64,000 nucleotides of DNA from an uncultured Chloroflexia bacterium (lineage in GTDB: Bacteria; Chloroflexota; Limnocylindria; Limnocylindrales; CSP1-4): assembly GCA_963712745.1 (NCBI GenBank), contig CAVQJC010000017.1, positions 128,001-192,000 of the forward strand, in the 5' to 3' direction. The notes beneath the pieces were generated by a model. It ran no database searches. It saw nothing but the letters and a program-made list of their open reading frames with translations, and was not told the origin of the DNA. Of this stretch, positions 29,968 to 47,945 are shown one piece after another (the first letter of the stretch is position 1; the number at the start of each line of letters is the position of its first letter). The position numbers and the translations under genes are program-made.

Positions 29968-30010
29968 GCCATGGCGGCGACGACCGGACATCAGCCGTTC
30001 ATGGCGGTTC
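29968..30010 (+). repeat. array core element copy 1 (degenerate)
   Basis: GCCATGGCGGCGACGACCGGACATCAGCCGTTCATGGCGGTTC. Confidence 0.75.
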
Positions 30011-30090
30011 GGGTCGTCCTGGGCTAGTCCGGCCAGCCCACGTTCGAGCCACGCGGCTGGGCATACGTCGGACCGGCCGGGCCCTCTACG

Positions 30091-30411
30091 CTATGCGCCG
30101 GGTGCGCGGAAGCTCGGCGACAGCTTGGCGGCGTCGTCGATCTCCTCGGGCGTGAGGAGCACCGTCGTGCGAACTCCCATGGCACCTGACGCCGAAGCCG
30201 TCATGGCACCGGCCGCCGCTGCCGCGTGGTCGGGCAGGTCCGCGATCAGGTAGAAGTCGTCACTACCGAACCCGAAGTAATACGCCTCGACGGTGCCGCC
30301 GAGCGACGTGATGATCTGTTCGGCCACCTCACGGCGGCGCGTGCCTCCCTCGGCAAGGACGCCGCGTGCACCCTCGGATGTGTAGCTGCCCGTGAACAGG
30401 AACTTCGCCAT
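30091..30411 (-). CDS. GYD-domain protein
   Basis: MAKFLFTGSYTSEG..GGTVEAYYFGFGSDD..TTVLLTPEEID. Confidence 0.85.
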   Translation of the reverse strand: MAKFLFTGSYTSEGARGVLAEGGTRRREVAEQIITSLGGTVEAYYFGFGSDDFYLIADLPDHAAAAAGAMTASASGAMGVRTTVLLTPEEIDDAAKLSPSFRAPGA

Positions 30412-30693
30412 TTCTGCCTCCTACCGCGTGGTGTCCGTGCGGACACGCAGACGTCGCGGCGAAGTCAGAGTAGGGCCCGCGTGGATGATGTCAACGACGG
30501 GCGGACGCCCGGGACCATCAGTGAACGCGATGGCATGTACATCGCAGCCCGTCCCCGTCCCTCTTGCGCCGGTGCTGACGCAGAACGGCCGACGCTCAGA
30601 CCGACACGTCCCGGTCCGCGTCGATGCCCAGGGCCAACGCCCCCTGCCGGTAGCCCAGCGCCTCGGGGGCCGGACGGCCCGGACGCGTGCATT

Positions 30694-30738
30694 GCCATGG
30701 CGGTGACGACCAGACATCACCCGCTTCACGTGGCGATT
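30694..30738 (+). repeat. array core element copy 2
   Basis: GCCATGGCGGTGACGACCAGACATCACCCGCTTCACGTGGCGATT. Confidence 0.85.
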
Positions 30739-30786
30739 TGGCGGCATCGTCTGCGAGTGCCGTAGACGCCCGCGAGAGAATCGTGT

Positions 30787-30867
30787 GCAGCGGGAGGCTG
30801 TGAAGTCCGGCTCGCGTACGTTGACCCGCCTGAGTCGCTTCGAGCCACTGGCGAACCCGACCCGCGC
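30787..30867 (+). ncRNA. c-di-GMP-II-like riboswitch (copy 1)
   Basis: GCGGGAGGC-TGTGAA..CCGCCTG..GAGCCACTGGCGAACCCGACCCGC; P1 GCGGG/CCCGC, pseudoknot CGCC/GGCG; 15 nt before ATG. Confidence 0.7.
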
Positions 30868-30881
30868 AGGAGGGGGAGGCC

Positions 30882-31739
30882 ATGCGATCCATGAGGTGGG
30901 TGCTGGCGGCGGTCGTAGCGCTGCTACTGACCGCGTCGTCCGTGCCCGGCCAGGCCGACGGCAACGAGGTCGAGTCCGGGGTCGAGCACGACCCGTTGTA
31001 CGAGGCGCTGGACGCCGAGTGCGCCAGGATCGCGAGACTCCCCTCTGGAAGGGCAGTCCAGGATGAAGGATTCCATCTGCTGGAGGGGCTGGACGCTGAG
31101 CGGAGTCACCTCGAGTGGCAGCTGGAGGGAGCCCGGAAGGCCCTTGCGGCGACGGGGCCAAGCGATGGTCAGCTTACCCCGTGGCAACGCACGGTGACCG
31201 AGGAGATCGAGGACTTCGAACAGCAGCTGGCGTTCATCCGGCTATCGCGCACGGTGATCGATGAATGCCTCGCAGGTCGCTACCAGGAGCTCGTTCGCCT
31301 TTGGGGCGCGGAGACCGAGCCGGGTACCCTTCGCGCTAGCTGGGACAAGGCCACCTGCACGGACACGCCCGGAGTCGAAGTGGCCAGGGCGGGCGCCCTG
31401 GACCTGACTCTCGGAGATGGCGGGGTTTCCGGGATCGTCCGCTGGATCTCGAAGCCAGAGCAGTCGGAGGAGGAAGCGGGCGCAGGGACCGCGGGCAGGG
31501 AGATCACCCTCGACGTCAGGGGGGCGTACGAGCATGATGGGACTATCCAGCTCATGCTGGCGAGACCCGAAGCACTGGACGAGTTCCGTTTGCGCGGGGA
31601 GGTCGAGTTCACTCCGATGGGCCTCAGGGGGAGTGGCGAGATCCGGTACGGGATCACGTTGGAAGGCTGCAACATCGGTCCGGACCCGGACGTGTGCGTG
31701 CACCAGGTCAGTTGTTCCGGACGGTGGACGAGTCAGTAG
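30882..31739 (+). CDS. secreted hypothetical protein
   Basis: GGAGG RBS, signal peptide MRWVLAAVVALLLTASS, several Cys. Confidence 0.7.
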   Translation: MRSMRWVLAAVVALLLTASSVPGQADGNEVESGVEHDPLYEALDAECARIARLPSGRAVQDEGFHLLEGLDAERSHLEWQLEGARKALAATGPSDGQLTPWQRTVTEEIEDFEQQLAFIRLSRTVIDECLAGRYQELVRLWGAETEPGTLRASWDKATCTDTPGVEVARAGALDLTLGDGGVSGIVRWISKPEQSEEEAGAGTAGREITLDVRGAYEHDGTIQLMLARPEALDEFRLRGEVEFTPMGLRGSGEIRYGITLEGCNIGPDPDVCVHQVSCSGRWTSQ

Positions 31740-31815
31740 CGGATGCTCCGCATGCCCGCGCTGCGCCTGTCGAGAGGCTGGCCGCAGCTCCGCGCCCCGG
31801 TCCCCAAGGAACATG

Positions 31816-31860
31816 GCCATGGCGGCGCCGACAAGAGATCTCCCTCTATTCATGGCGGTT
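31816..31860 (+). repeat. array core element copy 3 (degenerate)
   Basis: GCCATGGCGGCGCCGACAAGAGATCTCCCTCTATTCATGGCGGTT. Confidence 0.8.
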
Positions 31861-31901
31861 TGGCATCGCGGGTTGATGGACAGCCGCGAGAGAATCATGG
31901 G

Positions 31902-31979
31902 TAGCGGGAGGCAGCGAGACGCGGTCCACACCCTGGCCGCCTGGACCGCGCCGAGCCACTGGCGAACCCGGCCCGCCTA
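31902..31979 (+). ncRNA. c-di-GMP-II-like riboswitch (copy 2)
   Basis: GCGGGAGGCAGCGAGA-CGCGGTCC..GGCCGCCT-GGACCGCG-CCGAGCCACTGGCGAACCCGGCCCGC; perfect inner stem. Confidence 0.75.
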
Positions 31980-31995
31980 GCAGAGGGGGTAGGCG

Positions 31996-32442
31996 ATGCA
32001 GCACATGCGTGAAGAGGTACGAGTGGAGGCACCCGTCGAGCACGTCTGGAAGTTCTACTGCGACACATCGAACTGGCCTGACTTCATGCCACGGGCCAAG
32101 TGTTCGGATTTCAGCGGGCCGCTGGACAAGGTCGGGACGACGTACGTCGGGGGCATGCGGCTGATGGGCTACGAGTTCAAGACGACCTACGAGATAGTCG
32201 AGGTCGAGCCGCAGCGGCTCATCCACGAACACACCGACGACGGTCCCATGGACAACTACTGGCGGTTCGACTCCGACGGCGATGCGACCAAGGTCGTCAT
32301 CGAGTCCGACTACGAGATGCCGGGCAAGGTGCCGGGCTTCATCAAGGACCTCATGAGCAAAGCCTGGATCGAGCGGAACATGCGCCAGTCGCTGGCCGAC
32401 TTCAAGGCCCTCGCCGAGGCGAAGGTCCCGGCGCACGCCTAG
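31996..32442 (+). CDS. SRPBCC/polyketide cyclase-family protein
   Basis: VEAPVEHVWKF..NWPDFMP..LADFKALAE. Confidence 0.85.
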   Translation: MQHMREEVRVEAPVEHVWKFYCDTSNWPDFMPRAKCSDFSGPLDKVGTTYVGGMRLMGYEFKTTYEIVEVEPQRLIHEHTDDGPMDNYWRFDSDGDATKVVIESDYEMPGKVPGFIKDLMSKAWIERNMRQSLADFKALAEAKVPAHA

Positions 32443-32555
32443 CCTAGCCGCGGCTGCATGAGGCCCATCCATGAGGATGGGCCTCCCCTCGCACATGGGG
32501 GCGCGCGAGCGCCCCCGCCGGGCTCAGTCTTCGAGGCCGGAGGCTCAGCGGCGAT

Positions 32556-32600
32556 GCCATGGCTGCGACGACCAGACATCGCCCTCAATGCGTGGCGGTT
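32556..32600 (+). repeat. array core element copy 4 (degenerate)
   Basis: GCCATGGCTGCGACGACCAGACATCGCCCTCAATGCGTGGCGGTT. Confidence 0.8.
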
Positions 32601-32603
32601 CGG

Positions 32604-32750
32604 CTACTCCTCCTCGAACAGGAACACGATCGTCTCGGCGATGGTCAGCCAGTCATCGGCGGGCGGGCCGCCTGTCGTGCTGCACCAGAGCCACGTCGAT
32701 GACAGCACAGACGAAGTCGCCGTCGTACAGGTAGATCAGGGCGTCCGAAG
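32604..32750 (-). pseudogene. 3' remnant of a family-II cassette gene
   Basis: Translates WLWCSTTGGPPADDWLTIAETIVFLFEEE*; no start found. Confidence 0.65.
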
Positions 32751-32770
32751 TCGGCCCGCAGAGGGTCTGG

Positions 32771-33763
32771 TCACTCGATCGGGATCGAGAGGGGGGCGCC
32801 TTCCGCGTACAGCGTCGCCGCGAGGATCACCACCTCATCGTCGGTCGTGTTCGCCCCGAAGTGCTGAAGGTCTGGGTTCTCGACGATGCTGTCGCCGGTC
32901 TTGAGCGTGTACGTGGCCGGGCCGACGGGTTCGCTGGAGCCATCTGCGTGGATGATCGTGCCCTCACCCGAGATGATCGTGTACTCGAGCGCTCCGCGGA
33001 CGATGCGTGCGATCTGCCAGCCGGCATGCGTGTGCGGGGCCAGCTCCGCGCCGGCAGGGATGCGGTACTGCCACAGCCCCAGCTCCTCACCCGGGGCCGA
33101 GCTCGGTCGTGCGAGTCCCAGATCGGTGCGGGTGATACCGACCTCCTCGATGGCGGGTCCACCGGTCTCCACGACGGCCACGCCGGGTTCCGCATCGGAT
33201 CTCTTGCTGCTCTTGTCCTTCGTGTCCTTCTTGTCGAGCTTGATCTTCTTGCCATCAGAGAAGTAGAGCGCGTGCACCCAACTGTCGTCTGCGAGGTGCT
33301 CTGTCACAGCCGAGCCCGTGGCGCCGTAGAACTTGCCCGATCCGCCCAGGATCGGCCGAGTCGTGACGTTGCCGGTGGCGATGGTGGGGCCCTGGGCCGG
33401 GTAGAGGGCGCTGCCACCGACCACGACCTGATCCACGTCGCCATCGCCGAACGAGAAGACGAGGGTGCTGATGCGGATCTCGTCGCCTTGCGCCGGCACA
33501 TCCACCGCGGTCGTCGTCAGTGTCGCGTCGAGGCGGCCGATCACCTGGCCGTCCTCAGCGGTCGTCTCGGTCGAGGTGACCCGGAGGTCCCCCAACTGGT
33601 GACCATCAGACGCGGCATTCGTGAGCGTGACGACGACCGCGTCGTGGTAGACAGAGAGCGATTCCTTCTCACGTGCCGCGCTCACCGGGGCGGCCAGGAC
33701 GACGAGCAGCAGTAGGCTGGTCAGGAGCGCGGTGAAGTACAGAGGCTGGAAACGGCTGTGCAC
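32771..33763 (-). CDS. secreted two-domain protein (dirigent/AOC-like barrel + cupin)
   Basis: Signal peptide; GHQLGD..PILGGSGKFYGATG; Lys-rich linker; cupin PHTHAG..G....H. Confidence 0.7.
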   Translation of the reverse strand: MHSRFQPLYFTALLTSLLLLVVLAAPVSAAREKESLSVYHDAVVVTLTNAASDGHQLGDLRVTSTETTAEDGQVIGRLDATLTTTAVDVPAQGDEIRISTLVFSFGDGDVDQVVVGGSALYPAQGPTIATGNVTTRPILGGSGKFYGATGSAVTEHLADDSWVHALYFSDGKKIKLDKKDTKDKSSKRSDAEPGVAVVETGGPAIEEVGITRTDLGLARPSSAPGEELGLWQYRIPAGAELAPHTHAGWQIARIVRGALEYTIISGEGTIIHADGSSEPVGPATYTLKTGDSIVENPDLQHFGANTTDDEVVILAATLYAEGAPLSIPIE

Positions 33764-33937
33764 TGGCTGATCTCCGAAGTCGGTTGGATGACGGAGTGGC
33801 AATCATCGGGCAGCGACGGCCAGCGGGCAAGTCGCCGGGATAGGCTCGGAGTCCCCCGACCCGATGCCTCCTCGGTCTTCACCCTCCTCTCACGACCCAG
33901 CGGGTCGAGTGCCCCGCACATCGCCGGGACCCGCCCC

Positions 33938-35617
33938 CTACGCCCTGGCCAGCTTCTTGTAGCGGATGCGGTGCGGCTGGTCGGCCGCTGTCCCCAACTC
34001 CTTGCGCCGGAAGGCCTCGTAGTCGCTCACGTTCCCCTCGAAGAAGCGCACTTGGGAATCGCCCTCGAAGGCGAGGATGTGGGTCGCGATCCGGTCGAGG
34101 AACCAGCGGTCGTGGGAGATGACCACGACGCAGCCCGGGAACGACTCCAGGCCGGCCTCGAGCGCTCGCAGCGTGTCCACGTCGAGGTCGTTGGTCGGTT
34201 CGTCGAGCAGCAGCACGTTGCCACCCGTCTGCAGCAGCTTGGCGAGGTGCACCCGGTTCCGCTCGCCACCCGACAGTTGGCCGACGAGCTTCTGCTGGTC
34301 GGTGCCACGGAAGTTGAACGATGAGACATAGGCGCGGGCCGGGACCTCGCGTGCCCCGGTCTTGATGAACTCGGCACCCTGGGTGATCTCCCCGAATACC
34401 GTCTTGTCGGCGGCCAGGTCGTCGCGCTCCTGGTCGACATAGCTCAGCGCGACGGTGTCACCGATCGCGATCGACCCGGCGTCGGGTGCCTCCTGCCCGA
34501 CGAGCATCCGGAACAGCGTCGTCTTGCCGGCGCCGTTGGGTCCGATGATCCCGACGATGCCGGCCCGCGGCAGCGAGAACGTCAGGTCCTCGATGAGCAG
34601 CTTCTCGCGGTAGCCCTTGCGCAGGCCGGCGACATCGATGACCTTGTCACCGAGCCGCGGCCCCGGGGGGATGGCGATCTCGAGCTCGCGGGCGCTGGCC
34701 TTGTCGTCGTTCGCCTCGGCCAGGAGTCGCTCGTAGGCTGACAGTCGAGCCTTGCCCTTGGCCTGACGCGCCTTCGCACCCATGCGCACCCATTCGAGCT
34801 CGCGCGCGAGCGTCCGCTGCCGGGCATCGACCTGCTTCTGCTCGGTCGCCAGCCGCGCGAGCTTCTGCTCGAGCCAGCTCGAGTAGTTGCCACTGAACGG
34901 GATGCCGCGGCCCCGGTCGAGCTCAAGGATCCACTTGGCCACGTTGTCGAGGAAGTATCGATCATGGGTGATGGCGACGACGGTACCGGCGTATTCGGAC
35001 AGGAAGCGCTCCAGCCATTCGACCGACTCGGCATCGAGGTGGTTCGTCGGTTCGTCGAGCAGCAGCAGGTCCGGGTGGCGCATGAGCAGTCGTGCGAGCG
35101 CCACGCGGCGCTTCTCGCCGCCGGAGAGCGTCCTGACGTCGGCGTCGTCGGGCGGGCAACGGAGCGCGTCCATCGCGATGTCGACGTTGCGCTCGAGGTT
35201 CCACGCGTCCGCGGCTTCGATGCGGTCCTCGAGGACCGCCTGCTCGGCGCCGATCGCGTCGTAGTCGGCGTCGGGATCGGACCAGCGGGCCATGACCGCG
35301 TTGTACTGGTCGATGAGCGACTGGACCTCGCGGACGCCGTCGAGCACGTTGCCCTTGACGTCCTTCGCGGAGTCGAGCCCGGGCTCCTGCTCGAGGTATC
35401 CGACGGTGAAGCCCGGGGTCAGCCGAGCCTCGCCGTTGTAGCCGTCGTCGAGCCCGGCCATGATCTTGAGCAGGCTCGACTTGCCGGCGCCGTTGGGCCC
35501 GATGACCCCGATCTTGGCGCCGGGATAGAAGGACAGCGAGATGTCCTCCAGCACGGTCCGGTCGGGCGGATAGTGCCGGGCGAGCTTGTACGCGGTGTAG
35601 ATGAATTCGGCTGGCAT
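33938..35617 (-). CDS. ettA: energy-dependent translational throttle ABC-F protein EttA
   Basis: ISLSFYPGAKIGVIGPNGAGKS, ELEWVR..KARQAKGKARL, LSGGERNRVHLAK, PHRIRYKKL. Confidence 0.96.
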   Translation of the reverse strand: MPAEFIYTAYKLARHYPPDRTVLEDISLSFYPGAKIGVIGPNGAGKSSLLKIMAGLDDGYNGEARLTPGFTVGYLEQEPGLDSAKDVKGNVLDGVREVQSLIDQYNAVMARWSDPDADYDAIGAEQAVLEDRIEAADAWNLERNVDIAMDALRCPPDDADVRTLSGGEKRRVALARLLMRHPDLLLLDEPTNHLDAESVEWLERFLSEYAGTVVAITHDRYFLDNVAKWILELDRGRGIPFSGNYSSWLEQKLARLATEQKQVDARQRTLARELEWVRMGAKARQAKGKARLSAYERLLAEANDDKASARELEIAIPPGPRLGDKVIDVAGLRKGYREKLLIEDLTFSLPRAGIVGIIGPNGAGKTTLFRMLVGQEAPDAGSIAIGDTVALSYVDQERDDLAADKTVFGEITQGAEFIKTGAREVPARAYVSSFNFRGTDQQKLVGQLSGGERNRVHLAKLLQTGGNVLLLDEPTNDLDVDTLRALEAGLESFPGCVVVISHDRWFLDRIATHILAFEGDSQVRFFEGNVSDYEAFRRKELGTAADQPHRIRYKKLARA

Positions 35618-35699
35618 GAGGCTAGGGTAGCGACCCTCCGCGGGGCAGCGCCTCGGGCTCGGTCGACACGGACCGTGCGCGTCCTCAGCCCGCCTGGCT

Positions 35700-35739
35700 C
35701 ATCCTCCGCGCCCCGGCCATCGGGTCAAGCGCCGGACGG
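35700..35739 (-). promoter_or_regulatory. conserved minus-strand promoter module (upstream of ettA)
   Basis: TTGACC-N16-GAGGAT on the minus strand. Confidence 0.5.
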
Positions 35740-35755
35740 ACCTGGGTCCCGCCTG

Positions 35756-35800
35756 GCCATGGCGGCGACGACCAGACCAAACCCGCTATTCATTATGTTT
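35756..35800 (+). repeat. array core element copy 5 (right end diverged)
   Basis: GCCATGGCGGCGACGACCAGACCAAACCCGCTATTCATTATGTTT. Confidence 0.85.
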
Positions 35801-35840
35801 GCTGAAGCCAGCCGACCCCTGTGCTAGTCCTCGCTCGCGC

Positions 35841-36473
35841 CTACCCCTCGACGGGCAGGAACTCGAAGGTCTCGGCGATGGAGAGCCAGTCGGGGTTGGG
35901 AGCCTCCTCGCCACCACACGTGATGCCGTAGATCGTCGAGTCGTCCTGCAGCAGGAACTGCGTGCCCGCGAACGGTGTGGGTCAGTCTGGATCGACGAAG
36001 GTGTGATCGATGCGAACCGCCTCGCCCGCTGGAAGCGTCACGACGGTAACCGTCGCGCCGCCAGGGTATCGATCGTCGGCCTGGAGGCGGGCGACGTGCT
36101 CTGCCACCAGTGAGTCGAGTGGGACGATCGCAGCCATGACCTCGACCCCGCAGTAGCCTGGGACTTCCTGGGGGCCCACGTACGGCATCGCCAGGACGGG
36201 TGACTCCTCGCTGACGGCCTCGTAGAGCCAGCTGAGATCAGCGGCATAGGTCGAGTCGGTCACGTTGCTGAGCATCTCGCCTAGCGAGCCGGCATCGAGC
36301 CCAGACCGGCGGACCCAAGCCCAATCATCGGGAAACGCCAGCGCGAAGCCAGCACCGGGCACCTCCACTCGACCACCCAGGCCAACCGGTCCGGGCGACG
36401 GTTCCCGTGCCACCACCCCAGTCCCTAGTACTAGGACCAGCAGCCCTGCCAGCAGTCCGACTCGCTTGCCCAC
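35841..36473 (-). pseudogene. family-II secreted protein with in-frame TGA at 35982
   Basis: GKRVGLLAGLLVLVLG..GGRVEVPGAGFALAFPDDW..LPAGEAVR..DPD*PTPF..ITC..PDWLSIAETFEFLPVEG*, same frame on both sides of the stop. Confidence 0.75.
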
Positions 36474-36499
36474 CACGTCCCCCATCCTGCTTGTCGTCA

Positions 36500-36549
36500 C
36501 ATCCTCTGCACCCCGCTCAGCGGGTCAAGGGCCGGACGGCCCGGCGGCG
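36500..36549 (-). promoter_or_regulatory. conserved minus-strand promoter module
   Basis: CATCCTCTGCACCCCGCTCAGCGGGTCAAGGGCCGGACGGCCCGGCGGC. Confidence 0.55.
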
Positions 36550-36568
36550 TGACGGAGCTGGAGCGCGA

Positions 36569-36863
36569 TCAGTCCGGATCGAACGAAGCGGCGAGCGTCT
36601 GGAGCGCGGTTACCGCATCAGGGGCGTTGGAGGCCCGCCGATCACCGGACGGCCCCGAGGCCACGGCCTGCCACTCGCCGGATGGACGATCTCCCGAGCC
36701 ATCGGACGAGACGTAGTGCACGCCGGAACAGCACCCACCCATCAGGCAGCCGGTCCTCTGTTGCCAGCCAGGCGCTCGTCAGCCGATCGGGAACGGTCCC
36801 GTCTCGTCGGACCGTGGTCTGGCCGAACGCCGTCGCGACCGTCGCCAACTTCGCCCATACCAT
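36569..36863 (-). CDS. hypothetical protein (probable frameshift ~36725)
   Basis: MVWAKL..AWLATEDRLPDGWVL / GVHYVS..EWQAVASGPSG..ALQTLAASFDPD*; lies behind a promoter module. Confidence 0.35.
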
Positions 36864-36908
36864 CACGTCACCCCTGCCCGAGCGACCGGCACTCCCGGTC
36901 AGTACTCC

Positions 36909-36957
36909 CATAGTCCGCGCCTCGGTCAGCGGGTCAAGGGCCGGACGGCCCGGCGGC
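36909..36957 (-). promoter_or_regulatory. conserved minus-strand promoter module
   Basis: TTGACC-N16-GACTAT variant. Confidence 0.55.
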
Positions 36958-36964
36958 ATGCGTG

Positions 36965-37009
36965 GCCATGGCGGCGACGACGAGACCAAACCCGCTATAC
37001 ATGGCGATT
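36965..37009 (+). repeat. array core element copy 6
   Basis: GCCATGGCGGCGACGACGAGACCAAACCCGCTATACATGGCGATT. Confidence 0.9.
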
Positions 37010-37057
37010 CCGTGCGGCCCACTGGAGCTTCGTGGACGCCCGCGAGAGAATCGTCGT

Positions 37058-37134
37058 AGCGGGAGGCAATGACGCGCGGCCCCAGCCCTGGCCGCCTGGA
37101 CCGTGCCGAGTCACTGGCGGACCCGACCCGCGCT
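37058..37134 (+). ncRNA. c-di-GMP-II-like riboswitch (copy 3)
   Basis: GCGGGAGGCAATGA..GGCCGCCTGGACCGTGCCGAGTCACTGGCGGACCCGACCCGC. Confidence 0.75.
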
Positions 37135-37149
37135 TGTGAGGGGGATGTC

Positions 37150-40420: not shown

Positions 40421-40428
40421 CATGCATC

Positions 40429-41150: not shown

Positions 41151-41198
41151 TCGCATCGCGTCGCCTCGGCTGCTTGCGGCTCAGGATCGGCGTGCATA

Positions 41199-41243
41199 GC
41201 CACGGCGGCGACGACCAGACCAAACCCGCTATACATGGCGATT
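41199..41243 (+). repeat. array core element copy 10
   Basis: GCCACGGCGGCGACGACCAGACCAAACCCGCTATACATGGCGATT. Confidence 0.92.
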
Positions 41244-41260
41244 CCTGTTAGCGAGTCGGG

Positions 41261-42394
41261 TCAGGTCGGCAGTTCGGCCAGCACGTCCTCGATGGCCATC
41301 CCACCGCTGCCACTGACGATGAACAGGACACCGCGAACGGTATACATGAACGACCACGTCGAACCGTCATCCGCCTCCTCCGCGTCATCCGTCCAGACGG
41401 TACGTTCACCGTAGGTCCGAGTCGGCCACTCCGAGAGCGGCGGGGTCACAGAGGTGCCCATCTCGCTGCGCATGATCTGTACCAGTTGCTCCATCACGAC
41501 TACGGGCGGGACTCCAGCAACTCGGATGGCCTCAACGACGTACTGCTCCGGCACCGACCGGTCAGCCGTACGCGCATGTGCCACCTGCAGGTCCCTGAAC
41601 TCCTGTCCGAGGTCGGAGATCAAGCGTCGGAACAACCGGCGAGCGTCTTCCTCGGTCAGCACCAGAGACGAGCTGCTCTCGACGGACAGCGGAGTATCGC
41701 CGATCACGTGCGGCAGCAGGGAGATCACCTGGTCGGACGGGAGCGGCAGGGTCTCGACGGTCTCGGCGATGGAGAGCCAGTCGTCGTCGGGGCGTTGGAA
41801 AGCTGAGCACGTCATCGTCAAGATGTCGCCGCCGACGTCGATCAGATACATCGTGACGGGGCCCCAGACGTCACGGTCGTAGGCATTCTGGGCGGTCGCT
41901 CGAAGTACCAGACCGGGACCGGTCGGCACGTCCACCGGCATCGGCGGGTCGGCATCCACCATCGACTCCGCGTCCACCATCGTCTGGTACAGACCTTCGG
42001 CGAAGGCATCGAGCCGCCAGCCTTCCCCGAGCCTTGGATAGAACAAGCAGCTCTCCGTCTCCGCGAGGGAGCACACTGAGGACGAGAGGTCCATACCCAA
42101 TAGCGGGAAGGATCCCTCAGCGGCCAAGAGCGAGAGGTTCATGTGCAGGCACGAGAGCCCAGCTGCAGTCAGTCCACCATCAGGCGAGTCCATGGCGCGG
42201 ACCTGTGAGTCGATGTCGGCGCCAGGGTCGAACGCCACCCAGCCCTCGGGGAGGGTGACCGCGAAGCCGTACTCAGCGATCTCCACGCGCCCGCCCATCC
42301 ACGGCGGAGGCGAGGCATCCTCCGCCCGCGCGGACCCGAATACAGTCGCCAGCAGACTGACCACAAGCAGCGCCACGCTCGCCAGCTGTCGCAT
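41261..42394 (-). CDS. secreted fusion protein: family-II + family-III domains
   Basis: GGRVE..GFAVTLPEGW..DDWLSIAETVE then LLPHVIGD..EAIRVAG..IEDVLAELP. Confidence 0.8.
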   Translation of the reverse strand: MRQLASVALLVVSLLATVFGSARAEDASPPPWMGGRVEIAEYGFAVTLPEGWVAFDPGADIDSQVRAMDSPDGGLTAAGLSCLHMNLSLLAAEGSFPLLGMDLSSSVCSLAETESCLFYPRLGEGWRLDAFAEGLYQTMVDAESMVDADPPMPVDVPTGPGLVLRATAQNAYDRDVWGPVTMYLIDVGGDILTMTCSAFQRPDDDWLSIAETVETLPLPSDQVISLLPHVIGDTPLSVESSSSLVLTEEDARRLFRRLISDLGQEFRDLQVAHARTADRSVPEQYVVEAIRVAGVPPVVVMEQLVQIMRSEMGTSVTPPLSEWPTRTYGERTVWTDDAEEADDGSTWSFMYTVRGVLFIVSGSGGMAIEDVLAELPT

Positions 42395-42417
42395 TCTCGT
42401 ACCTGTGCGGATGCCCT

Positions 42418-42464
42418 CATCCTCCGCGCCCCGCTCAGCGGGTCAAGGGCCGGACGGCCCGGCG
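42418..42464 (-). promoter_or_regulatory. conserved minus-strand promoter module
   Basis: CATCCTCCGCGCCCCGCTCAGCGGGTCAAGGGCCGGACGGCCCGGCG. Confidence 0.55.
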
Positions 42465-42509
42465 TCCATGGCGGCGACGACCAGACATAACCCGCTATAC
42501 ATGGCGATT
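42465..42509 (+). repeat. array core element copy 11
   Basis: TCCATGGCGGCGACGACCAGACATAACCCGCTATACATGGCGATT. Confidence 0.92.
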
Positions 42510-42530
42510 CGTACCGTCCGCTCGGCCGAG

Positions 42531-43136
42531 CTACGCTCCGGCGGGCAGGAACTCGAAGGTCGCGGCGATGGACAGCCAGTCATCCTCGGGTGCTCCTCGC
42601 GAACAGCCGAGGAAGTACCACCGGTGTCCATCACCGAAGAGGTACATAGCGTATCGGTCAGCGGTCTCCAGCGACGCCCAGTCGGGGTACCCGCCGGGCT
42701 CGCCCCAGAAGTTCGCGTCTGAGGGCACCAGGTCCATGGTGACCCGTCCGACGCGTCCAGCCGGCAGGTCGATGACCGCGCCGGTGACGTTCCTGGCGGC
42801 GAGACTGTCGTCCCATCGCGAGACCAACGCATCGAGCCAGTCGTCAATCGACTCGACCGGCAGGACCGGCTCAACGACGGACGAGTCAAAGACCTCACAG
42901 TAGCCACCCGGCCCCGAGGAGGTCAGGCCCGGCAAGTACGGGGGGTGATCCAGCATCCCAATGACCTCCCACCCGTCGGGGAAGGCGATGGCGATTCCCA
43001 GATCCGGGAAGGTCCGGATGGTGGCGGCAGGCTGCCCCGTCACCTCCGGGCTCGCCGACGGTGACTGCGCCGTGATGGCGCTCGACGTCGTGGCTAGGAG
43101 ACACGCCACCGCAACCGAGATGATGAGCCGTCGCAT
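42531..43136 (-). CDS. family-II secreted protein
   Basis: Signal peptide; GIAIAFPDGW..LPAGRVGR..LGC..DDWLSIAATFEFLPAGA. Confidence 0.8.
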   Translation of the reverse strand: MRRLIISVAVACLLATTSSAITAQSPSASPEVTGQPAATIRTFPDLGIAIAFPDGWEVIGMLDHPPYLPGLTSSGPGGYCEVFDSSVVEPVLPVESIDDWLDALVSRWDDSLAARNVTGAVIDLPAGRVGRVTMDLVPSDANFWGEPGGYPDWASLETADRYAMYLFGDGHRWYFLGCSRGAPEDDWLSIAATFEFLPAGA

Positions 43137-43161
43137 GATCGACTCCCGTGCGCGATGCCCC

Positions 43162-43210
43162 CATCCTCTCCGCCCCGCTCAGTGGGTCAAGGGCCGGACG
43201 GCCCGGCGGC
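43162..43210 (-). promoter_or_regulatory. conserved minus-strand promoter module
   Basis: CATCCTCTCCGCCCCGCTCAGTGGGTCAAGGGCCGGACGGCCCGGCGGC. Confidence 0.55.
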
Positions 43211-43218
43211 GTGCCATC

Positions 43219-43265
43219 GCCATGTACGGGCGATGACCAGACCAAACCCGCTATTCATGGCGATT
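43219..43265 (+). repeat. array core element copy 12
   Basis: GCCATGTACGGGCGATGACCAGACCAAACCCGCTATTCATGGCGATT. Confidence 0.9.
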
Positions 43266-43377
43266 CTCGCTTGGGGCGGAGTTCGCAGCAACGGCTCGTG
43301 GGACGCCTGCGCCTCGAGAATCGTCTACCTGGTACAGGCGGGATCGACTCGTCAGCGTGAGAATCGAGGGAGAGACC

Positions 43378-43899
43378 ATGGGAACGATCAGGATCGGCAT
43401 CATCACGCTCCTCACCATCGGCCAGCTGGCGGGCTCAGCGGTCAGTGTCGCAGCGCAGGACGATGAAGCCGTCGTCGTGAGCGGGGGCATGAGTCCGATT
43501 GGCGGCGCGAGCGTGCCGTGCGAGCTGGAGGAGGATTTCACCGAACTCGACGACGGCACGGCCAGCTGGACCTGGTGCTTCGGTCTCGTGATGGACGATC
43601 CACGGCTCACCGGCGACGGCTCCGTCGTCATGGCTGAGCGGGCGTACGACGGCTTCGGCCTGATCTCCTCGAGGGTGGAGATAGCCAACGAAGGAGGGTC
43701 GTGGTCGGGCAACGGCACCAGGGTCTTCATCGACGGAGATCCGGGGATCGATATCGAGCAACTCGTACTCACCGGGGCCGGTGGATATGGCGGCCTGACG
43801 GCCATCCTCTATGCCGATCCGGAGTTCGGCTTCCGCGGATTGGACTCGTGGAACGGCGTCATCATCTCGGGCGAGATGCCAGGACTACCTGCCGAGTAG
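43378..43899 (+). CDS. family-I secreted protein
   Basis: Signal peptide; DDPRLTG..GGSWSG..LTGAGGYGGL..GVIISGEMP. Confidence 0.8.
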   Translation: MGTIRIGIITLLTIGQLAGSAVSVAAQDDEAVVVSGGMSPIGGASVPCELEEDFTELDDGTASWTWCFGLVMDDPRLTGDGSVVMAERAYDGFGLISSRVEIANEGGSWSGNGTRVFIDGDPGIDIEQLVLTGAGGYGGLTAILYADPEFGFRGLDSWNGVIISGEMPGLPAE

Positions 43900-43905
43900 A
43901 CCCCT

Positions 43906-43957
43906 CGCGCCACCTCCGCCTCGGCGGGCAGGAACTCGAAGGTCTCGGCGATGGAGG
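43906..43957 (-). pseudogene. short 3'-end remnant of a family-II gene
   Basis: Encodes SIAETFEFLPAE immediately after the stop codon of the 43958 gene. Confidence 0.6.
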
Positions 43958-44557
43958 CTATGGCAGTTCGGCCAGCACGTCCTCGATGGTCGGTTCGGTC
44001 GGTGCGTCGGGGTCAGAGCCAACGCGACCAAGCCGCACTCTGAACAGGACCTCGCCCTTCGGGTAGAGGTACTCGATGAAGCGGTCGTCGGCGCCATCGA
44101 AGGTAACGACCACGACGCGGCGGTCACCGATGTCCTGCCAGTCCATAGCGGCCACTGGCAGTTGGTCGGCGACAGCTTGGGACTCGCGTCGCAACCCCTC
44201 GAACACGCCTGCCCAGAAGTCTGCCGCCTGAGCACCCACGATGCGTGTCGCCTCGATACTCAGGAACCGGTCTCCTTCCGGGTGAACTCCATAGCCGCCT
44301 GCGGCTCTGACATCCTCCGGCTCCAGTCCGAGTGGCACCAAGACATCACGCCAGCCTGCGGTCCACTCCGCATCGGCGGAAGAGACAGCCGAGAAGTCCA
44401 GGATGGACAGGTCGATGTCCCCGACCTGTGACGGGATGATGGACGCCAAGTCATCGGGTGCGAACGGCGGCGTGGCCTCCGCTGACGGCGACTGAGCCAA
44501 CGCCCCAGACCCCAGCGACAGAACCATCAGCCCTGCCAATAGCCCGGCTCGCTTCAC
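43958..44557 (-). CDS. family-III secreted protein
   Basis: KRAGLLAGLMVLSLGSG signal peptide; IIPSQVGD..EATRIVG..IEDVLAELP. Confidence 0.78.
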   Translation of the reverse strand: MKRAGLLAGLMVLSLGSGALAQSPSAEATPPFAPDDLASIIPSQVGDIDLSILDFSAVSSADAEWTAGWRDVLVPLGLEPEDVRAAGGYGVHPEGDRFLSIEATRIVGAQAADFWAGVFEGLRRESQAVADQLPVAAMDWQDIGDRRVVVVTFDGADDRFIEYLYPKGEVLFRVRLGRVGSDPDAPTEPTIEDVLAELP

Positions 44558-44584
44558 GGCTCCACCCCTCCTGCGGATGCCGCT

Positions 44585-44633
44585 CATCCTCCGCGCCCCG
44601 AGCCCCGGGTCAAGGGCCGGACGGCCCGGCGGC
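44585..44633 (-). promoter_or_regulatory. conserved minus-strand promoter module
   Basis: CATCCTCCGCGCCCCGAGCCCCGGGTCAAGGGCCGGACGGCCCGGCGGC. Confidence 0.55.
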
Positions 44634-44640
44634 ACGCTCA

Positions 44641-44685
44641 GCCCTGGCGGCGACGACCAGACATAACCCGGTATTCATGGCGATT
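44641..44685 (+). repeat. array core element copy 13
   Basis: GCCCTGGCGGCGACGACCAGACATAACCCGGTATTCATGGCGATT. Confidence 0.9.
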
Positions 44686-44733
44686 CCGTGCGGCCCACTG
44701 GAGCCTCGTGGACGCCCGCGAGAGAATCGTCGT

Positions 44734-44810
44734 AGCGGGAGGCAAAGACGCGCGGCCCCAGCCCTGGCCGCCTGGACCGTGCCGAGTCACTGGCGGACCC
44801 GACCCGCGCT
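44734..44810 (+). ncRNA. c-di-GMP-II-like riboswitch (copy 5)
   Basis: Identical to copy 3 except AATGA>AAAGA. Confidence 0.7.
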
Positions 44811-44825
44811 TGTGAGGGGGATGTC

Positions 44826-45359
44826 ATGCGTACGTTGCGGCTGTCCCTGGTCGGGACGGTCATCGTGATGCTGCTCGGCGGGCTGGCTGGAGCGGTGCTT
44901 GGCGCAGGACGAGGAGGAAGCGCCCGTATGGGTGACCCTCCTCGCGCAGGAGAACTGCCGGATGGAGGCGGACCCCGGCACCTACGAGCCAGGCGCAGGA
45001 CGCGCCAAGAAGATCCGCGACCTGCCCCTCGCTTGCGACCTCACCTACAGCGATGCCCGCCTTAGCGGGCCGAGCCACATGCTCTACAACGAGGACTGCT
45101 TCGAGTCGGGCATCTGCGTCGGGTGGGGGACCATCGGATCGACGGCTCCGACGGATCGTGGACCGGGTGGTGGCACGAGATCGACGACGAGGACGACGAT
45201 ACGAGCTTCCACATCGTGCTGACCGGCGACGGCGGTTACGAGGGACTCACCGCCATCATCTACTCACTCGGGGTCTGGGAAACGTTCCCCGACGAGTACG
45301 GTGTCATCTACCGGGGCGATCCGCCGCCAGGTCCCGAGGTGCTGTTGACTGCTGAGTAG
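44826..45359 (+). CDS. family-I secreted protein with two compensating frameshifts (~44900, ~45131)
   Basis: MRTLRLSLVG.. / AQDEE..SDARLSG..YNEDC / DGSWTG..LTGDGGYEGL..GVIYRGDPP. Confidence 0.7.
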
Positions 45360-45586
45360 CAGATCACCAGGCGACCGCGCCACGCTCACCGCCGCGAGCG
45401 AGATCCATACAGGGATAGACACCGATACGACGGTCATCTACCCCTGCTCGAGCTGAGCCGCACCGACATCGACCCCACGGCGCCCTGAGAACAGCACCGC
45501 CACCCTGGAGCAGCACTTCCCGCTGCCGCGTTCATGACCTCCGCCTCTTGAACCGAGCGGTACTGCTGTGGCCTCATACCCATCTG

Positions 45587-45663
45587 AGCGGGAGGCGATG
45601 AGGCACGGCCCACACCCTGGCCGCTGGGACCGCGTCCGAGCCACTGGCGAAACCGGCCCGCGC
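45587..45663 (+). ncRNA. c-di-GMP-II-like riboswitch (copy 6)
   Basis: GCGGGAGGCGATGA..GGCCGCTGGGACCGCGTCCGAGCCACTGGCGAAACCGGCCCGC. Confidence 0.7.
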
Positions 45664-45679
45664 AGCAAAGGGGGATGTC

Positions 45680-46579
45680 ATGCGGACGTTGCGACTGTCC
45701 CTGTCGGTGACGGTCATCTTGGCACTGCTGAGCGGACTGGGCAGTGCGGTCGTGGCTCAGTCGGAGGAGCCGAACCAACAGAGCGCGTGGCCGAGCCTCA
45801 CGACGTCCCTCGAGTACGGCGAAGACCCAAAGCAGGTTATCCATGCCTACGAGCCAGAGCCTCGGACCGCGCCACGGCCCGCCGTCGTCTTCTTCTCCGG
45901 CGGCGGATACGACATCGGGGATCCGCTGTGGGTCCTCGACTCTGCACGCCAGATGGCCGAGGCTGGCTACGTGGCCTTTGCGGCGGGCTACCGCCTCCAC
46001 GATCCGTCGACGGGCACGAACCCATGGCCGGCACAACTCGAGGATGCCCAGGCAGCGGTCCGCTGGATCCGCGCTCACGCGGCGGACTACGGCGTCGACC
46101 CCGACCGGATCTGCGCCCTCGGCCATTCCTCCGGTGGCCACCTCGCGTCGCTGGTCGGCATGACCGATGCCCGCGACACGAGTGACCCTGACATGGCGGG
46201 CATCTCGAGCCGCGTCACCTGCGTCGTCAGCGTCTCGGGCGACGTCGACCTCACGATCGGCAACCCGTACCCGGAGCAGACGGCGGTCTACGAGAGCCTG
46301 CTGGGCGCCAGCTACGAGGATGACCCCGCCGCGTGGCGTGCGGTCTCGCCCGCCTACCTCGTCGATGCGGAGACCGTGCCCATCCTCATCATCCACGGCA
46401 CCCGCGACACCAACGTCGACGTTCAGGCGTCCCGGAACCTGGCGGCAGCCCTCGCCGAGGTCGACCGGGAGTTCGTCTACGCCGAGATAGACGCCGACCA
46501 CTTCGACATCTTCGAGCAGCCCCCGACCCTGCCGCTCACCGAGACGTTCCTCGTCTACCAACTCCATCCAGAGGAGTGA
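45680..46579 (+). CDS. secreted alpha/beta hydrolase (esterase/lipase)
   Basis: MRTLRLSL signal peptide; SGGGY, WPAQLED, GHSSGG nucleophile, HGTRD, H. Confidence 0.9.
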   Translation: MRTLRLSLSVTVILALLSGLGSAVVAQSEEPNQQSAWPSLTTSLEYGEDPKQVIHAYEPEPRTAPRPAVVFFSGGGYDIGDPLWVLDSARQMAEAGYVAFAAGYRLHDPSTGTNPWPAQLEDAQAAVRWIRAHAADYGVDPDRICALGHSSGGHLASLVGMTDARDTSDPDMAGISSRVTCVVSVSGDVDLTIGNPYPEQTAVYESLLGASYEDDPAAWRAVSPAYLVDAETVPILIIHGTRDTNVDVQASRNLAAALAEVDREFVYAEIDADHFDIFEQPPTLPLTETFLVYQLHPEE

Positions 46580-46762
46580 TGACCGACCGGTCGATGGCGG
46601 CTCGATGGACGGCGAACCCAGAGCGAGTTGAAGAGATACGCGGCGCCAGCGCAAGCGCACCCGGCTGGAGCGTGGGCCGAGACCAAGGAGTAGGCGAGAG
46701 CTAGGAGTCGGCGACCAGCCGTGCCCACCGGCTGATTCGCTCGCGCCGCCTCGGCTGCCTGC

Positions 46763-46829
46763 GCCATGGCGACGACGACCAGACGTCGTACGCGTGGCGA
46801 CCAGACCAAGCCCGCTATACATGGCGATA
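46763..46829 (+). repeat. array core element copy 14 (internally duplicated)
   Basis: GCCATGGCGACGACGACCAGACGTCGTACGCGTGGCGACCAGACCAAGCCCGCTATACATGGCGAT. Confidence 0.85.
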
Positions 46830-46865
46830 CGCCGGGTCGGCAGGTCAAGCGCGATACGGCCGCGC

Positions 46866-47840
46866 CTACTCCTCGGCGGGTCGGAACTCGAACGTCTCGG
46901 CGATGGACTGCCAACGATCCTGAGGGGCTGCAACCCCGAAGCAAGTAAGGGAGTAGTAGGACGTCCCGTCGGTCACGAGGTAGGCGCTCCTCTCGAGGTT
47001 CGCGCCCTCATCCACGTCATCGATGCGGACAGCCGAACCGCTGGGCAACTCGATGGCGGTCGTGGCTAGCGTCGCAGGCGCCGACCGGAACATGGCGATG
47101 AACGCCTCCACGAAGCCCTCGAGGTCGCTCCACGCCACGTCGGCGTGGCGTCCGTGGGGCCAGTACCAAGCACGGCAGGTGTCCTCGCCCGGCATGAACG
47201 CCAGCATCACCATCTGGCCCGTGGTGGTCGGCCTGTCTTCCCGCGTGAATACGACTGACCAGTCCTCGGGGAGGGTGAGCGCGAAGCCCGCTTCGGGCAC
47301 CCAGCCTCGCAAGCGACGTTCCAGGTTCGTCGGCTGGTCCTGCCGAAGCGGGTCGATAGCGATCGAGTTCGCGATAGACAGCCAGCGATCGGTCGGCGGG
47401 TCGGTGCTGGTGCAGGTCAGCACGCGATAGGACGAGCCGACCTCCCAGTAGTAGCTCGTCACCAGGTACACACCATCGGGCCCATAGTCCTGCCACGCCT
47501 CGGTGCGAAGGGCCGCTCCCTGCGGGGTCGCGACTGTCACGGCGGAGGCGGCGGCAGGACCGCCTCCTTGCTCGACCAACGCGGCCAGGCAAAGGGTCTC
47601 ATCGGTGTCGTACAGCGTGAGCAATGGCGTCACATCGCCTCGCGTGGTCAACTCGTACGGATCGCCGGGCGTGGCCTCCCAGAGGTGCGGCGGGACGACC
47701 CAGAGCCCGGAGCCCAGGCTCTCGACACGACCTGCGGACCAGAACGTCGCTTCGGTCGTTGGTGTCGGCGACTGCGCGGCCACACCATTCGCAACCATCG
47801 CGAGGGTCAGCCCGGCCAGCATTCCAGATCGTCTGCGCAT
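46866..47840 (-). CDS. family-II secreted protein, tandem domain
   Basis: Signal peptide; LTC..DRWLSIANS then GFALTLPEDW..LPSGSAVR..LTC..DRWQSIAETFEFRPAEE. Confidence 0.8.
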   Translation of the reverse strand: MRRRSGMLAGLTLAMVANGVAAQSPTPTTEATFWSAGRVESLGSGLWVVPPHLWEATPGDPYELTTRGDVTPLLTLYDTDETLCLAALVEQGGGPAAASAVTVATPQGAALRTEAWQDYGPDGVYLVTSYYWEVGSSYRVLTCTSTDPPTDRWLSIANSIAIDPLRQDQPTNLERRLRGWVPEAGFALTLPEDWSVVFTREDRPTTTGQMVMLAFMPGEDTCRAWYWPHGRHADVAWSDLEGFVEAFIAMFRSAPATLATTAIELPSGSAVRIDDVDEGANLERSAYLVTDGTSYYSLTCFGVAAPQDRWQSIAETFEFRPAEE

Positions 47841-47849
47841 CACTTGCCC

Positions 47850-47898
47850 CATCCTCGCCTGCCGGCTCAGTCGGTCAAGGGCCGGACAGCCCGGCGGC
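47850..47898 (-). promoter_or_regulatory. conserved minus-strand promoter module
   Basis: CATCCTCGCCTGCCGGCTCAGTCGGTCAAGGGCCGGACAGCCCGGCGGC. Confidence 0.55.
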
Positions 47899-47905
47899 AT
47901 GCATC

Positions 47906-47945
47906 GCCATGGTGCCGACGACCAGACGGCGTACGCCTGGCGAGT
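47906..47945 (+). repeat. array core element copy 15 (short terminal variant)
   Basis: GCCATGGTGCCGACGACCAGACGGCGTACGCCTGGCGA. Confidence 0.75.

Follow-up and report, generated by a model that had tools for sequence, protein, structure and literature searches.

To our knowledge, no system other than integrons that stores genes as cassettes between sites is well understood. They combine an integrase, IntI, with attC sites, imperfect hairpins with R″ and R′ boxes (RYYYAAC and GTTRRRY) that are conserved in structure and variable in sequence, and their cassettes are mostly promoterless and read from a common promoter. In pdif modules, 28-bp sites made of a XerC arm, a 6-bp spacer and a XerD arm alternate in orientation around the modules, and integrative mobile elements exploiting Xer (IMEX) use the Xer recombinases at dif, with a complete palindromic site at one end and hybrid sites between units. 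Repetitive extragenic palindromes and bacterial interspersed mosaic elements (REP/BIME) are palindromes scattered genome-wide and associated with a Y1 (RAYT) transposase, and miniature inverted-repeat transposable elements (MITE) have terminal inverted repeats and target-site duplications. The subject here is a 64,000-nt stretch of DNA (the window, C17:128001-192000) from the genome of an uncultured Chloroflexia bacterium of the order Limnocylindrales (G000; 4.2 Mb in 20 contigs, 84.6% complete), in which a 45-nt element (EL) recurs between short gene units and a palindromic terminal variant (T) closes the series. What emerges is a conserved type of cassette array, specific to its lineage and closed by a terminal site of its own. 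An integron-like layout is reached with a different site, with no integrase in view and with a control element in each cassette, and its carriers belong to an uncultured soil and sediment lineage. We propose that EL and T are att-type recombination sites, that the cassettes they bound can be shuffled and that these collect at T; to this reading we assign a probability of roughly 0.45. It starts from direct observations, namely the architecture, its conservation, the position of T as last site, breakpoints at the sites, the polarity of site conservation and the hypervariable content of conserved loci.

Fifteen co-oriented sites are present in the window: 13 full or nearly full EL copies, one composite site and one terminal variant. 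They are given below in window coordinates, where D3 denotes a leader of about 54 nt of minus-strand genes.

29968-30010, + strand: EL copy 1, nhmmer 30.6 bits; degenerate, with a 3-nt deletion; opens the array
30694-30739, + strand: EL copy 2, 49.6 bits; a weak riboswitch copy comes next, then a + gene
31816-31861, + strand: EL copy 3 (nhmmer); upstream of riboswitch 31898 and the SRPBCC gene
32556-32601, + strand: EL copy 4 (nhmmer); convergent junction; adjoins the minus-family gene-end remnant 32604-32667
35756-35800, + strand: EL copy 5 (nhmmer, alignment); right end altered; D3 leader before it
36965-37010, + strand: EL copy 6 (pattern match, nhmmer); divergent junction, with D3 left and riboswitch right
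38546-38591, + strand: EL copy 7, 60.9 bits, the top score in the window; no D3 or riboswitch adjoining
39847-39892, + strand: EL copy 8 (pattern match, nhmmer); between two minus genes, with D3 left and gene 3′ end right
40429-40474, + strand: EL copy 9 (nhmmer); divergent junction
41199-41244, + strand: EL copy 10 (pattern match, nhmmer); convergent junction, with + gene end 41150 and - gene end 41261
42465-42510, + strand: EL copy 11 (pattern match, nhmmer); between two minus-strand genes
43221-43266, + strand: EL copy 12 (nhmmer); first 8 nt altered
44641-44686, + strand: EL copy 13 (pattern match, nhmmer); divergent junction
46763-46828, + strand: composite site, a T-type part (left arm + CCAGAC + GTCGTACGCGTGGCGA) fused to CCAGAC + EL right half
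47906-47943, + strand: terminal site T, which closes the array and at which synteny with G009 and G053 begins

An earlier note, made by a model from the letters alone, had claimed 15 co-oriented intergenic sites spaced 0.6-3.2 kb apart, best conserved at the centre and right and degenerate on the left. Pattern, repeat and alignment analysis bears this out. Its consensus, with up to 3 mismatches, gave 6 matches in the window against 0 in 100 shuffles, and a repeat search returned a 15-row family on the + strand (29964-47954) with rows 582-3200 nt apart; two of these rows are the halves of the composite site, and copy 43221 falls in family D5 instead. Every site lies on the same strand between open reading frames (ORFs), which were selected by their GC content at third codon positions (GC3). 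Left-hand copies score 30.6-50 bits versus 48-61 bits for those of the centre and right (Spearman rho 0.55 for the window array). The neighbours of the top-scoring copy 7 are, on the left, only a doubtful + ORF (38118-38516, no Pfam family) and, on the right, the 3′ end of the minus gene 38610-39791.

Within EL, the stretch ACCAGAC is the most invariant (95-103 of 104 copies), and the variable positions are 23-26, 35 and 43. A candidate hairpin of 10 base pairs shows one compensatory change against about 60 broken cells, and EL folds no better than its shuffles (z of −0.4 to −1.6). Because there is no covariation and folding is at shuffle level, EL is conserved as sequence, not as a fold. Between species, 37-nt stretches are identical while the flanking coding DNA is about 80-85% identical; since this identity exceeds that of the flanks, selection acts on the EL sequence itself. 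Relative to attC, the EL consensus contains neither GTTRRRY nor RYYYAAC on either strand, and checks of consensus, covariation and folding revealed neither hairpin nor covariation, in line with the earlier remark that canonical attC sites are absent. Other roles were tried and set aside. The variable positions lack a 3-nt period and a common variant stops the only ORF-like frame, which argues against coding; no Rfam family was matched by EL or D3 at E ≤ 1 in 36400-43400, a region with seven ELs; and promoters inside EL were at chance level in a consensus scan (1 promoter-like site against 1.1 expected). Terminator-like calls on EL amounted to one chance-level match only.

To define the layout of the cassettes, EL, D3, riboswitches and ORFs were mapped in ten arrays, and 102 ELs were classed by junction. 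The common grammar is a repeated succession of EL and unit, in which a cassette runs from one EL to the next and contains 1-3 genes, mostly for secreted proteins. In units with genes on the EL strand, about 45 nt that include a conserved TGGACGCCCGCGAGAGAATC-like motif separate EL from the riboswitch, and the gene comes next; in units of the other strand, EL is followed by the gene 3′ end, the gene and a D3 leader adjoining the next EL. Genes lie on both strands, and most are preceded by a riboswitch or a D3 leader. The Pfam domains encoded include SRPBCC, SnoaL, rhodanese, BD-FAE esterases, Kelch, META, SecDF-P1-like, TAP hydrolase with PDZ, VanZ/RDD, GNAT, extracytoplasmic function (ECF) sigma factors, GYD, GDSL and the metallo-beta-lactamase fold, and many cassette proteins have a signal peptide and no Pfam family. 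The main junction classes are as follows.

D3 leader left, minus-gene 3′ end right: 22 of 102 ELs
Plus-gene 3′ end left, minus-gene 3′ end right (convergent): 15 of 102 ELs
Plus-gene 3′ end left, riboswitch right: 12 of 102 ELs
D3 leader left, riboswitch right: 12 of 102 ELs

Median EL profile scores are alike over these four classes (45.2-47.2 bits). Because they are similar across the junctions, the convergent ones included, EL conservation is independent of a neighbouring gene start; clear convergent-junction ELs of the window are those at 41199 and 32556. The CA/AT variant of EL (positions 23-24) shows no association with the type of its left or right neighbour (Fisher p = 1.0 for both).

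The terminal site T consists of the EL left arm, CCAGAC and (G/A)TCGTACGCCTGGCGA. As its right arm nearly complements the left arm, T is a strong hairpin, which folds at −29 kcal/mol (z about −4) with arms of 9-13 nt around CAGAC. In 19 of 19 records with both EL and T (10 genome arrays and 9 metagenome contigs), T is the last site. An additional internal T is present in two records, the window (as part of the composite) and L081, and two others, G000_C10 and G013_C9, end in T-gene-T. Beyond T, the mapped arrays have a housekeeping-type gene whose 3′ end faces T (for example hisA, carbamoyltransferase or ABC-F); L061 departs from this, as the gene after T encodes a DUF4139 protein and has the strand of T. 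In G000, T is present at five places. In this genome, C1:113047-113358 is a decayed mini-array with a degenerate EL, a gene-end remnant, D3 and a T whose 22-nt right part is present three times in tandem. Matches to the T pattern with up to 3 mismatches in 12 genomes proved to be UvrD-type helicase coding sequence and were not counted as T sites. One of these stretches, G001:C4:261971-262002 (L089:1972-2003), is identical to T at 29 of 32 bases and lies inside the N-terminal helicase domain of a UvrD-type gene, and a T-like helicase stretch is also found at single places in 11 other genomes.

A profile search of G000 placed EL in three co-oriented arrays (the window array on C17, one on C7 that runs to the contig end and one on C10) and in single copies on C1 and C4. 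The sites are on one strand in 53 of 53 site-bearing records, though the genes occupy both strands. With up to 3 mismatches, the 37-nt core is present in 9 of 41 genomes, including 8 of 24 other species of the genus, and in 0 of 16 genomes of a sister family (1.1-Mb genomes). Of the 49 genomes of the genus, about 14 have T or EL. When one genome from each of 185,579 species was scanned for exact matches, 16 stretches were returned, all from metagenome-assembled genomes (MAGs) of uncultured Chloroflexia, Candidatus Limnocylindrales or Chloroflexota; besides G000, the same layout recurs in species-level MAGs of a single Candidatus Limnocylindrales genus, at least 12 in number. EL is also present on 40 metagenome contigs, mostly of 1-3 kb, and viral contigs gave 0 matches. 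Literature searches on the riboswitch variants (including PMC12452182) and on Limnocylindrales cassettes found no account of these arrays. This distribution bears on whether EL and T could be a REP- or MITE-like selfish repeat spreading into intergenic DNA. The copies are intergenic, and T is a short GC-rich palindrome of REP-like size, often located between converging genes as REP/BIME are. Unlike such repeats, however, the copies are clustered and co-oriented, limited to three arrays and two single sites in 4.2 Mb, with no viral-contig matches; EL forms no palindrome and, apart from 6-nt CCATGG-type ends, lacks terminal inverted repeats, its flanks have no duplications, and a Y1/RAYT transposase (PF01797) was found in 0 of 5 genomes searched. 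A selfish repeat is therefore highly improbable.

Comparison with related genomes places breakpoints at the sites. The part of the window that is homologous to G009 opens with the first base of T (47905). At this locus, G009 has T alone, between an NRPS-like (nonribosomal peptide synthetase-like) gene and the same carbamoyltransferase genes, and the array that G053 has there is a different one. The flanks of G021, G022 and G005 likewise become homologous to one another from T onwards. At the hisA locus, the distance from an EF-G-like gene to hisA is 1.1-2.2 kb in the array-free G001, G009 and G010 versus 23.9 kb in G000. Cassette proteins encoded at the same locus in G056_C8 and G000_C7 are 36-54% identical, compared to 72-82% for the flanking genes; over the same-locus pairs, including the window and G053_C7, cassette proteins have 36-54% or no identity and the flanks 72-97%. 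The two cassettes common to the hisA-locus arrays of G000 and G021 are located in parts far from T. Conserved gene order with breakpoints away from the element, which the earlier note had named as a possible refutation, is thus not seen, nor is the random genome-wide scatter that it had named beside it.

Some recent rearrangements have an edge at or within a site. A cassette shared by metagenome contig L074 and G005 is 99.6% identical over 456 nt, its identity begins at the first bases of EL, and its left neighbours are unrelated. Arrays C7 and C17 share a 691-nt segment, 98.4% identical, that starts at EL position 9, in the left arm of copy 12, and includes the adjoining gene; here too, the left neighbours differ. 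The same two arrays share a riboswitch-esterase-T segment of 1215 nt, 99.0% identical, that ends at the last base of T. In C7 this T closes the array, and in the window its 99% identical counterpart is the T part of the composite 46763-46828, so that the esterase segment is joined at its T end to CCAGAC + EL right half. Half-sites break on both sides of CCAGAC: T is left arm + CCAGAC, and three other copies are CCAGAC + right half with unrelated DNA in front. In addition, EL scores climb towards T, with a weighted Spearman sum reached by 4 of 5000 permutations and positive values in 6 of 9 arrays, as measured with a profile built from the window copies on arrays that are related to one another. 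Four public DNA runs yielded short contigs, with joints whose sides are 21-36 nt and which lie at repeats or in relatives; no excision junction was seen in this material, which is too short to tell of excision or of alternative cassette order.

The T-last rule, the occurrence of T by itself in G009, the rise of conservation towards T and the half-sites broken on either side of CCAGAC lend support to the cassette picture. EL and T would be recognised as DNA sequence and would mark the cassette boundaries, and T would be the primary chromosomal site, in tail-to-tail intergenic regions by housekeeping genes. A cassette with an EL-type site would recombine with T within or next to CCAGAC, which would leave a full EL before the new cassette and restore T behind it; as a consequence, arrays would grow at the T end and older sites would decay at the far end. 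Exchange between arrays would use the same sites. We infer this crossover point, a circular intermediate and an enzyme, for which the candidates would be a Xer-like tyrosine recombinase of the host and some protein as yet unrecognised. More tentatively, the arrays may represent a gene-capture platform of a Limnocylindrales genus, unrelated to integrons, in which T serially gains self-regulated cassettes, many of them under riboswitch control and coding for secreted proteins, by exchange at CCAGAC, leaving an EL hybrid each time, through a housekeeping or unrecognised recombinase.

Similar to integrons, including sedentary chromosomal ones with near-identical repeats such as the Vibrio VCR (Vibrio cholerae repeat) arrays and the clusters of attC sites lacking integrases (CALINs), co-oriented sites punctuate an array of short gene units, the content is hypervariable at a fixed locus, a distinct site is located at one array end and site conservation is polar; like CALINs, the arrays stand without an integrase nearby. 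In contrast to integrons, neither IntI in G000 nor a recombinase beside the arrays was found, a single palindromic site is located at the array end instead of many attC hairpins, and the cassettes (0.6-3.2 kb) have genes in either orientation with their own riboswitch or leader and no common promoter. The arrays resemble pdif modules in that short conserved sites bound gene modules with no dedicated recombinase gene nearby, and IMEX in that a complete palindromic site, here T, stays at one end with hybrid sites between units. EL and T do not, however, resemble the 28-bp XerC-spacer-XerD site, the sites are co-oriented and not alternating, and T occurs at five genome places, unlike dif, which is present once at the terminus. 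Judged by defining features, the arrays belong neither to the integrons and CALINs nor to the pdif sets and REP families. If recombination at EL and T is true, they would constitute a second, independent route to cassette-based genome plasticity. In that case they would also offer a natural collection of secreted proteins that are coupled one by one to an orphan riboswitch variant, and thereby perhaps a way to its ligand.

Several observations weigh against recombination at EL and T. Pfam scans of 21 + 91 + 14 proteins of the arrays and flanks returned no recombinase domain. The window contains no tyrosine recombinase (PF00589), and the earlier note had likewise had no recombinase in view; the four PF00589 matches of G000 all lie outside it and comprise two Xer-like genes (C4:215177 and C4:255936), a tyrosine recombinase gene at C12:6776 and, at C17:376381, a fragment. 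Tyrosine recombinases are present in 49 of 49 genomes of the genus and are not linked to the arrays, serine recombinases (resolvases) are sporadic, and the Y1 transposase search was negative as described above. The integron integrase model TIGR02249 is above its cut-off in 1 of 49 genus genomes (G061) and not in G000. That single match, L039 (G061:C10:96075-97019), is a full-length integron integrase scoring 483.7 bits. The search for recombinases or transposases co-occurring with the arrays, which the earlier note had proposed, thus gave no linked candidate among the genomes scanned. EL itself lacks the second inverted arm that would be expected of a tyrosine-recombinase core site. In 3 of 9 arrays the polarity of EL scores is reversed, and because the arrays are related to one another, their counts are not independent. 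G024_C5 has four ELs and no T, and G001, G009 and G010 have neither EL nor T at the hisA locus; T was therefore not pre-existing at every array locus. The 99% identical esterase segment begins at the riboswitch and not at EL, and the 98.4% identical segment ends 20 nt after the stop codon, at an internal deletion in C7 that leaves a D3 remnant. The 22-nt tandem triplication at C1:113276 is accounted for by slippage between 8-nt repeats. A 300-nt tract, 36909-37208 versus 44585-44884, is 94% identical and crosses EL as gene conversion would. Finally, EL lies 49-52 nt from the riboswitch core in about 30 copies and 40-42 nt from it in about 8, two spacings that differ by about 10 nt, and a DNA-binding regulator would therefore also fit.

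These two spacing classes, one helical turn apart, introduce the alternative that a regulatory or architectural protein (an array-wide activator, a silencer or a boundary/insulator factor) binds to EL, and that EL was co-duplicated with the gene units. The arrays would then be paralogous clusters from ordinary duplication and deletion, and T would be a palindromic high-affinity or terminator version at their edge, consistent with its strong hairpin at the 3′ ends of converging genes. EL is conserved in sequence blocks as binding sites are, and its distances to D3 and the riboswitch are fixed: it is 0-14 nt from the D3 leader and lies upstream of D3 or the riboswitch wherever either is present beside it. 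Directly upstream of a riboswitch are 24 of 102 ELs (two of the main junction classes), and more than 45 adjoin D3. The lack of any recombinase found fits this explanation as well. However, the 15 of 102 ELs between two gene 3′ ends have no promoter to serve and are equally conserved, EL orientation is constant while genes flip, 35 of the 51 riboswitch copies in G000 have no EL, some of them with the same promoter-proximal motif, and EL forms no hairpin and resembles a terminator in no more than the one chance-level match. Nor does a regulatory site predict that T is always last, that half-sites break at CCAGAC, that synteny is broken exactly where T begins, or that conservation is polar. The transcription-factor operator offered by the earlier note is in this way weakened by the convergent-junction copies, while the spacing to control regions still fits, and a regulatory role for EL is judged to be unlikely. 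Should EL prove to be the site of a regulator or insulator, the arrays would still make up a large regulon, specific to the lineage and unusual in its strictly oriented layout.

The 300-nt tract points to a further explanation, in which no dedicated machinery is needed: EL would be the conserved border of a unit of duplication, with gene conversion keeping the EL copies uniform, and a homology patch for RecA-type unequal crossing-over, which would duplicate, delete and swap units within and between arrays. The tract comprises the D3 leader, EL, the riboswitch and signal-peptide codons. Because it is 94% identical before two different genes, it suggests that a whole 5′ control module was copied between cassettes. 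A conversion-like tract spanning EL (family D7) is expected from homologous exchange, as are the missing array-linked recombinase, the breakpoints outside EL, the simple internal deletions that leave D3 and gene-end remnants, and the slippage at C1:113276; shared 5′ modules (riboswitch, signal peptide) and 3′ ends add homology (families D9, D14 and D15). On the other hand, 45 nt is short for efficient homologous exchange, the units are filled by unrelated protein families, the 37-nt identity across species with less similar flanks points to selection on the sequence, and a terminal variant conserved at several loci in many species would be unexpected from passive decay. Homologous exchange through EL is considered quite unlikely. 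Both it and a regulatory/insulator role are nevertheless serious rivals, and the best-supported mechanism is that EL and T recombine and that arrays grow at their T end. For the capture and shuffling system that the earlier note envisaged, the cassette layout and the breakpoints at sites hold; a linked recombinase is missing, and some recent breakpoints fall outside the element.

The leaders and genes of the window array are as follows.

30784-30871, + strand: weak c-di-GMP-II-GCG-like riboswitch, 38.6 bits, under the gathering score (C17:158784-158871)
31898-31982, + strand: c-di-GMP-II-GCG aptamer, Rfam 64.4 bits against a gathering score of 47.9
37053-37137, + strand: c-di-GMP-II-GCG aptamer, Rfam 58.2 bits
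40518-40600, + strand: weak c-di-GMP-II-GCG-like copy, 35.6 bits
44729-44813, + strand: c-di-GMP-II-GCG aptamer, Rfam 57.0 bits
45582-45667, + strand: c-di-GMP-II-GAG aptamer, Rfam 56.1 bits against a gathering score of 40; no EL upstream
35698-47901, - strand: ten copies of the D3 leader (repeat families D3, D11)
30091-30411, - strand: GYD-domain protein gene (Pfam PF08734, 6.6e-24)
30882-31739, + strand: secreted protein gene, no Pfam family (ORF, Pfam scan)
31996-32442, + strand: SRPBCC (Polyketide_cyc2) gene with a riboswitch in front (Pfam)
32771-33802, - strand: secreted cupin-domain protein gene (Pfam)
33938-35617, - strand: housekeeping-type ABC-F ATPase gene inside the array, GC3 0.91 (GC3, Pfam); its ortholog flanks the G014 array
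35982-36500, - strand: gene of a minus-strand secreted family ('M'), 172 aa (ORF)
37150-38031, + strand: riboswitch-led secreted protein gene ('P' type), no Pfam family (ORF, Pfam scan)
38610-39791, - strand: M-family secreted gene, 393 aa, two repeats of a domain ending ...W(L/R)(A/S)IAES(L/F)E(W/F)L (ORF, Pfam scan)
39961-40383, - strand: small membrane protein gene (ORF, Pfam scan)
40614-41150, + strand: P-type secreted protein gene (ORF, Pfam scan)
41261-42394, - strand: M-family secreted gene, 377 aa (ORF, Pfam scan)
42531-43136, - strand: M-family secreted gene, 201 aa (ORF; language-model lead to PsbP-like)
43357-43899, + strand: secreted protein gene without riboswitch (ORF); 98.4% identical copy in array C7
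43958-44587, - strand: secreted protein gene in the same EL-bounded interval as 43357-43899
44826-45359, + strand: frameshifted P-type gene remnant (ORF analysis)
45680-46579, + strand: secreted BD-FAE esterase gene (Pfam), part of the 1215-nt segment shared with the C7 end
46866-47843, - strand: M-family secreted gene between the composite and terminal T (ORF, Pfam scan)
48021-49965, - strand: right flank, two carbamoyltransferase genes with 3′ end facing T, 94-97% amino acid identity in G009 and G053

Riboswitches and gene remnants had likewise been described in the earlier note, and both are present. Four leaders reach the Rfam gathering score over the full model (RF03170, c-di-GMP-II-GCG; RF03169, c-di-GMP-II-GAG). 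The remnants by the sites are a minus-family C-terminus at 32604-32667 (family D6), an orphan D3 at 38067 and the frameshifted gene 44826-45359. D3 starts at 35698, 36498, 36907, 38067, 39799, 40379, 42416, 43160, 44583 and 47848, and 8 of these 10 copies adjoin the left edge of EL or T, the exceptions being 36498 and 38067. A by-eye reading of D3 as a promoter (TTGACC-N16-GAGGAT) was unsupported, as the consensus scan gave 1 promoter-like site against 1.1 expected.

The ABC-F gene 33938-35617 has a flank-like codon bias, and in G014 it is located outside the array, to its right. Because of this position in G014, the window array may be two arrays, one on either side of the gene.

Secreted proteins of both strands share a C-terminal motif, (F/L)LPAE or PAE, 0-3 residues before the stop codon. 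The motif is carried by 38610-39791, 41261-42394, 42531-43136 and 46866-47843 on the minus strand and by 37150-38031, 40614-41150 and 43357-43899 on the plus strand. Its retention whichever way the gene points makes it look like a tag at the protein level and not a DNA boundary. For the M family, a language model gave a weak lead to PsbP-like domains (scores 0.90-0.92).

Matches to the c-di-GMP-II-GCG model number 47 and 23 in the array-bearing G000 and G021, versus 6, 2 and 4 in the array-free G001, G010 and G009, so that the copy number of G000 is unusually high. Many of the G000 copies are located in further, EL-free clusters; examples of riboswitch places are C5:76792-112590, C2:106763-108458, C4:294836-297036, C10:168118-176392, C15:161380-167655 and C20:4101-50890. 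Finally, a second promoter type precedes many riboswitch copies (C2:108454, C4:295721, C15:164934, C15:167570, C20:23804 and window 45500-45581), in which an inverted repeat, GTGAC-N4-GTCAC, overlaps a TTGAC(C) box. From its sequence, this repeat looks like the operator of a different regulator.

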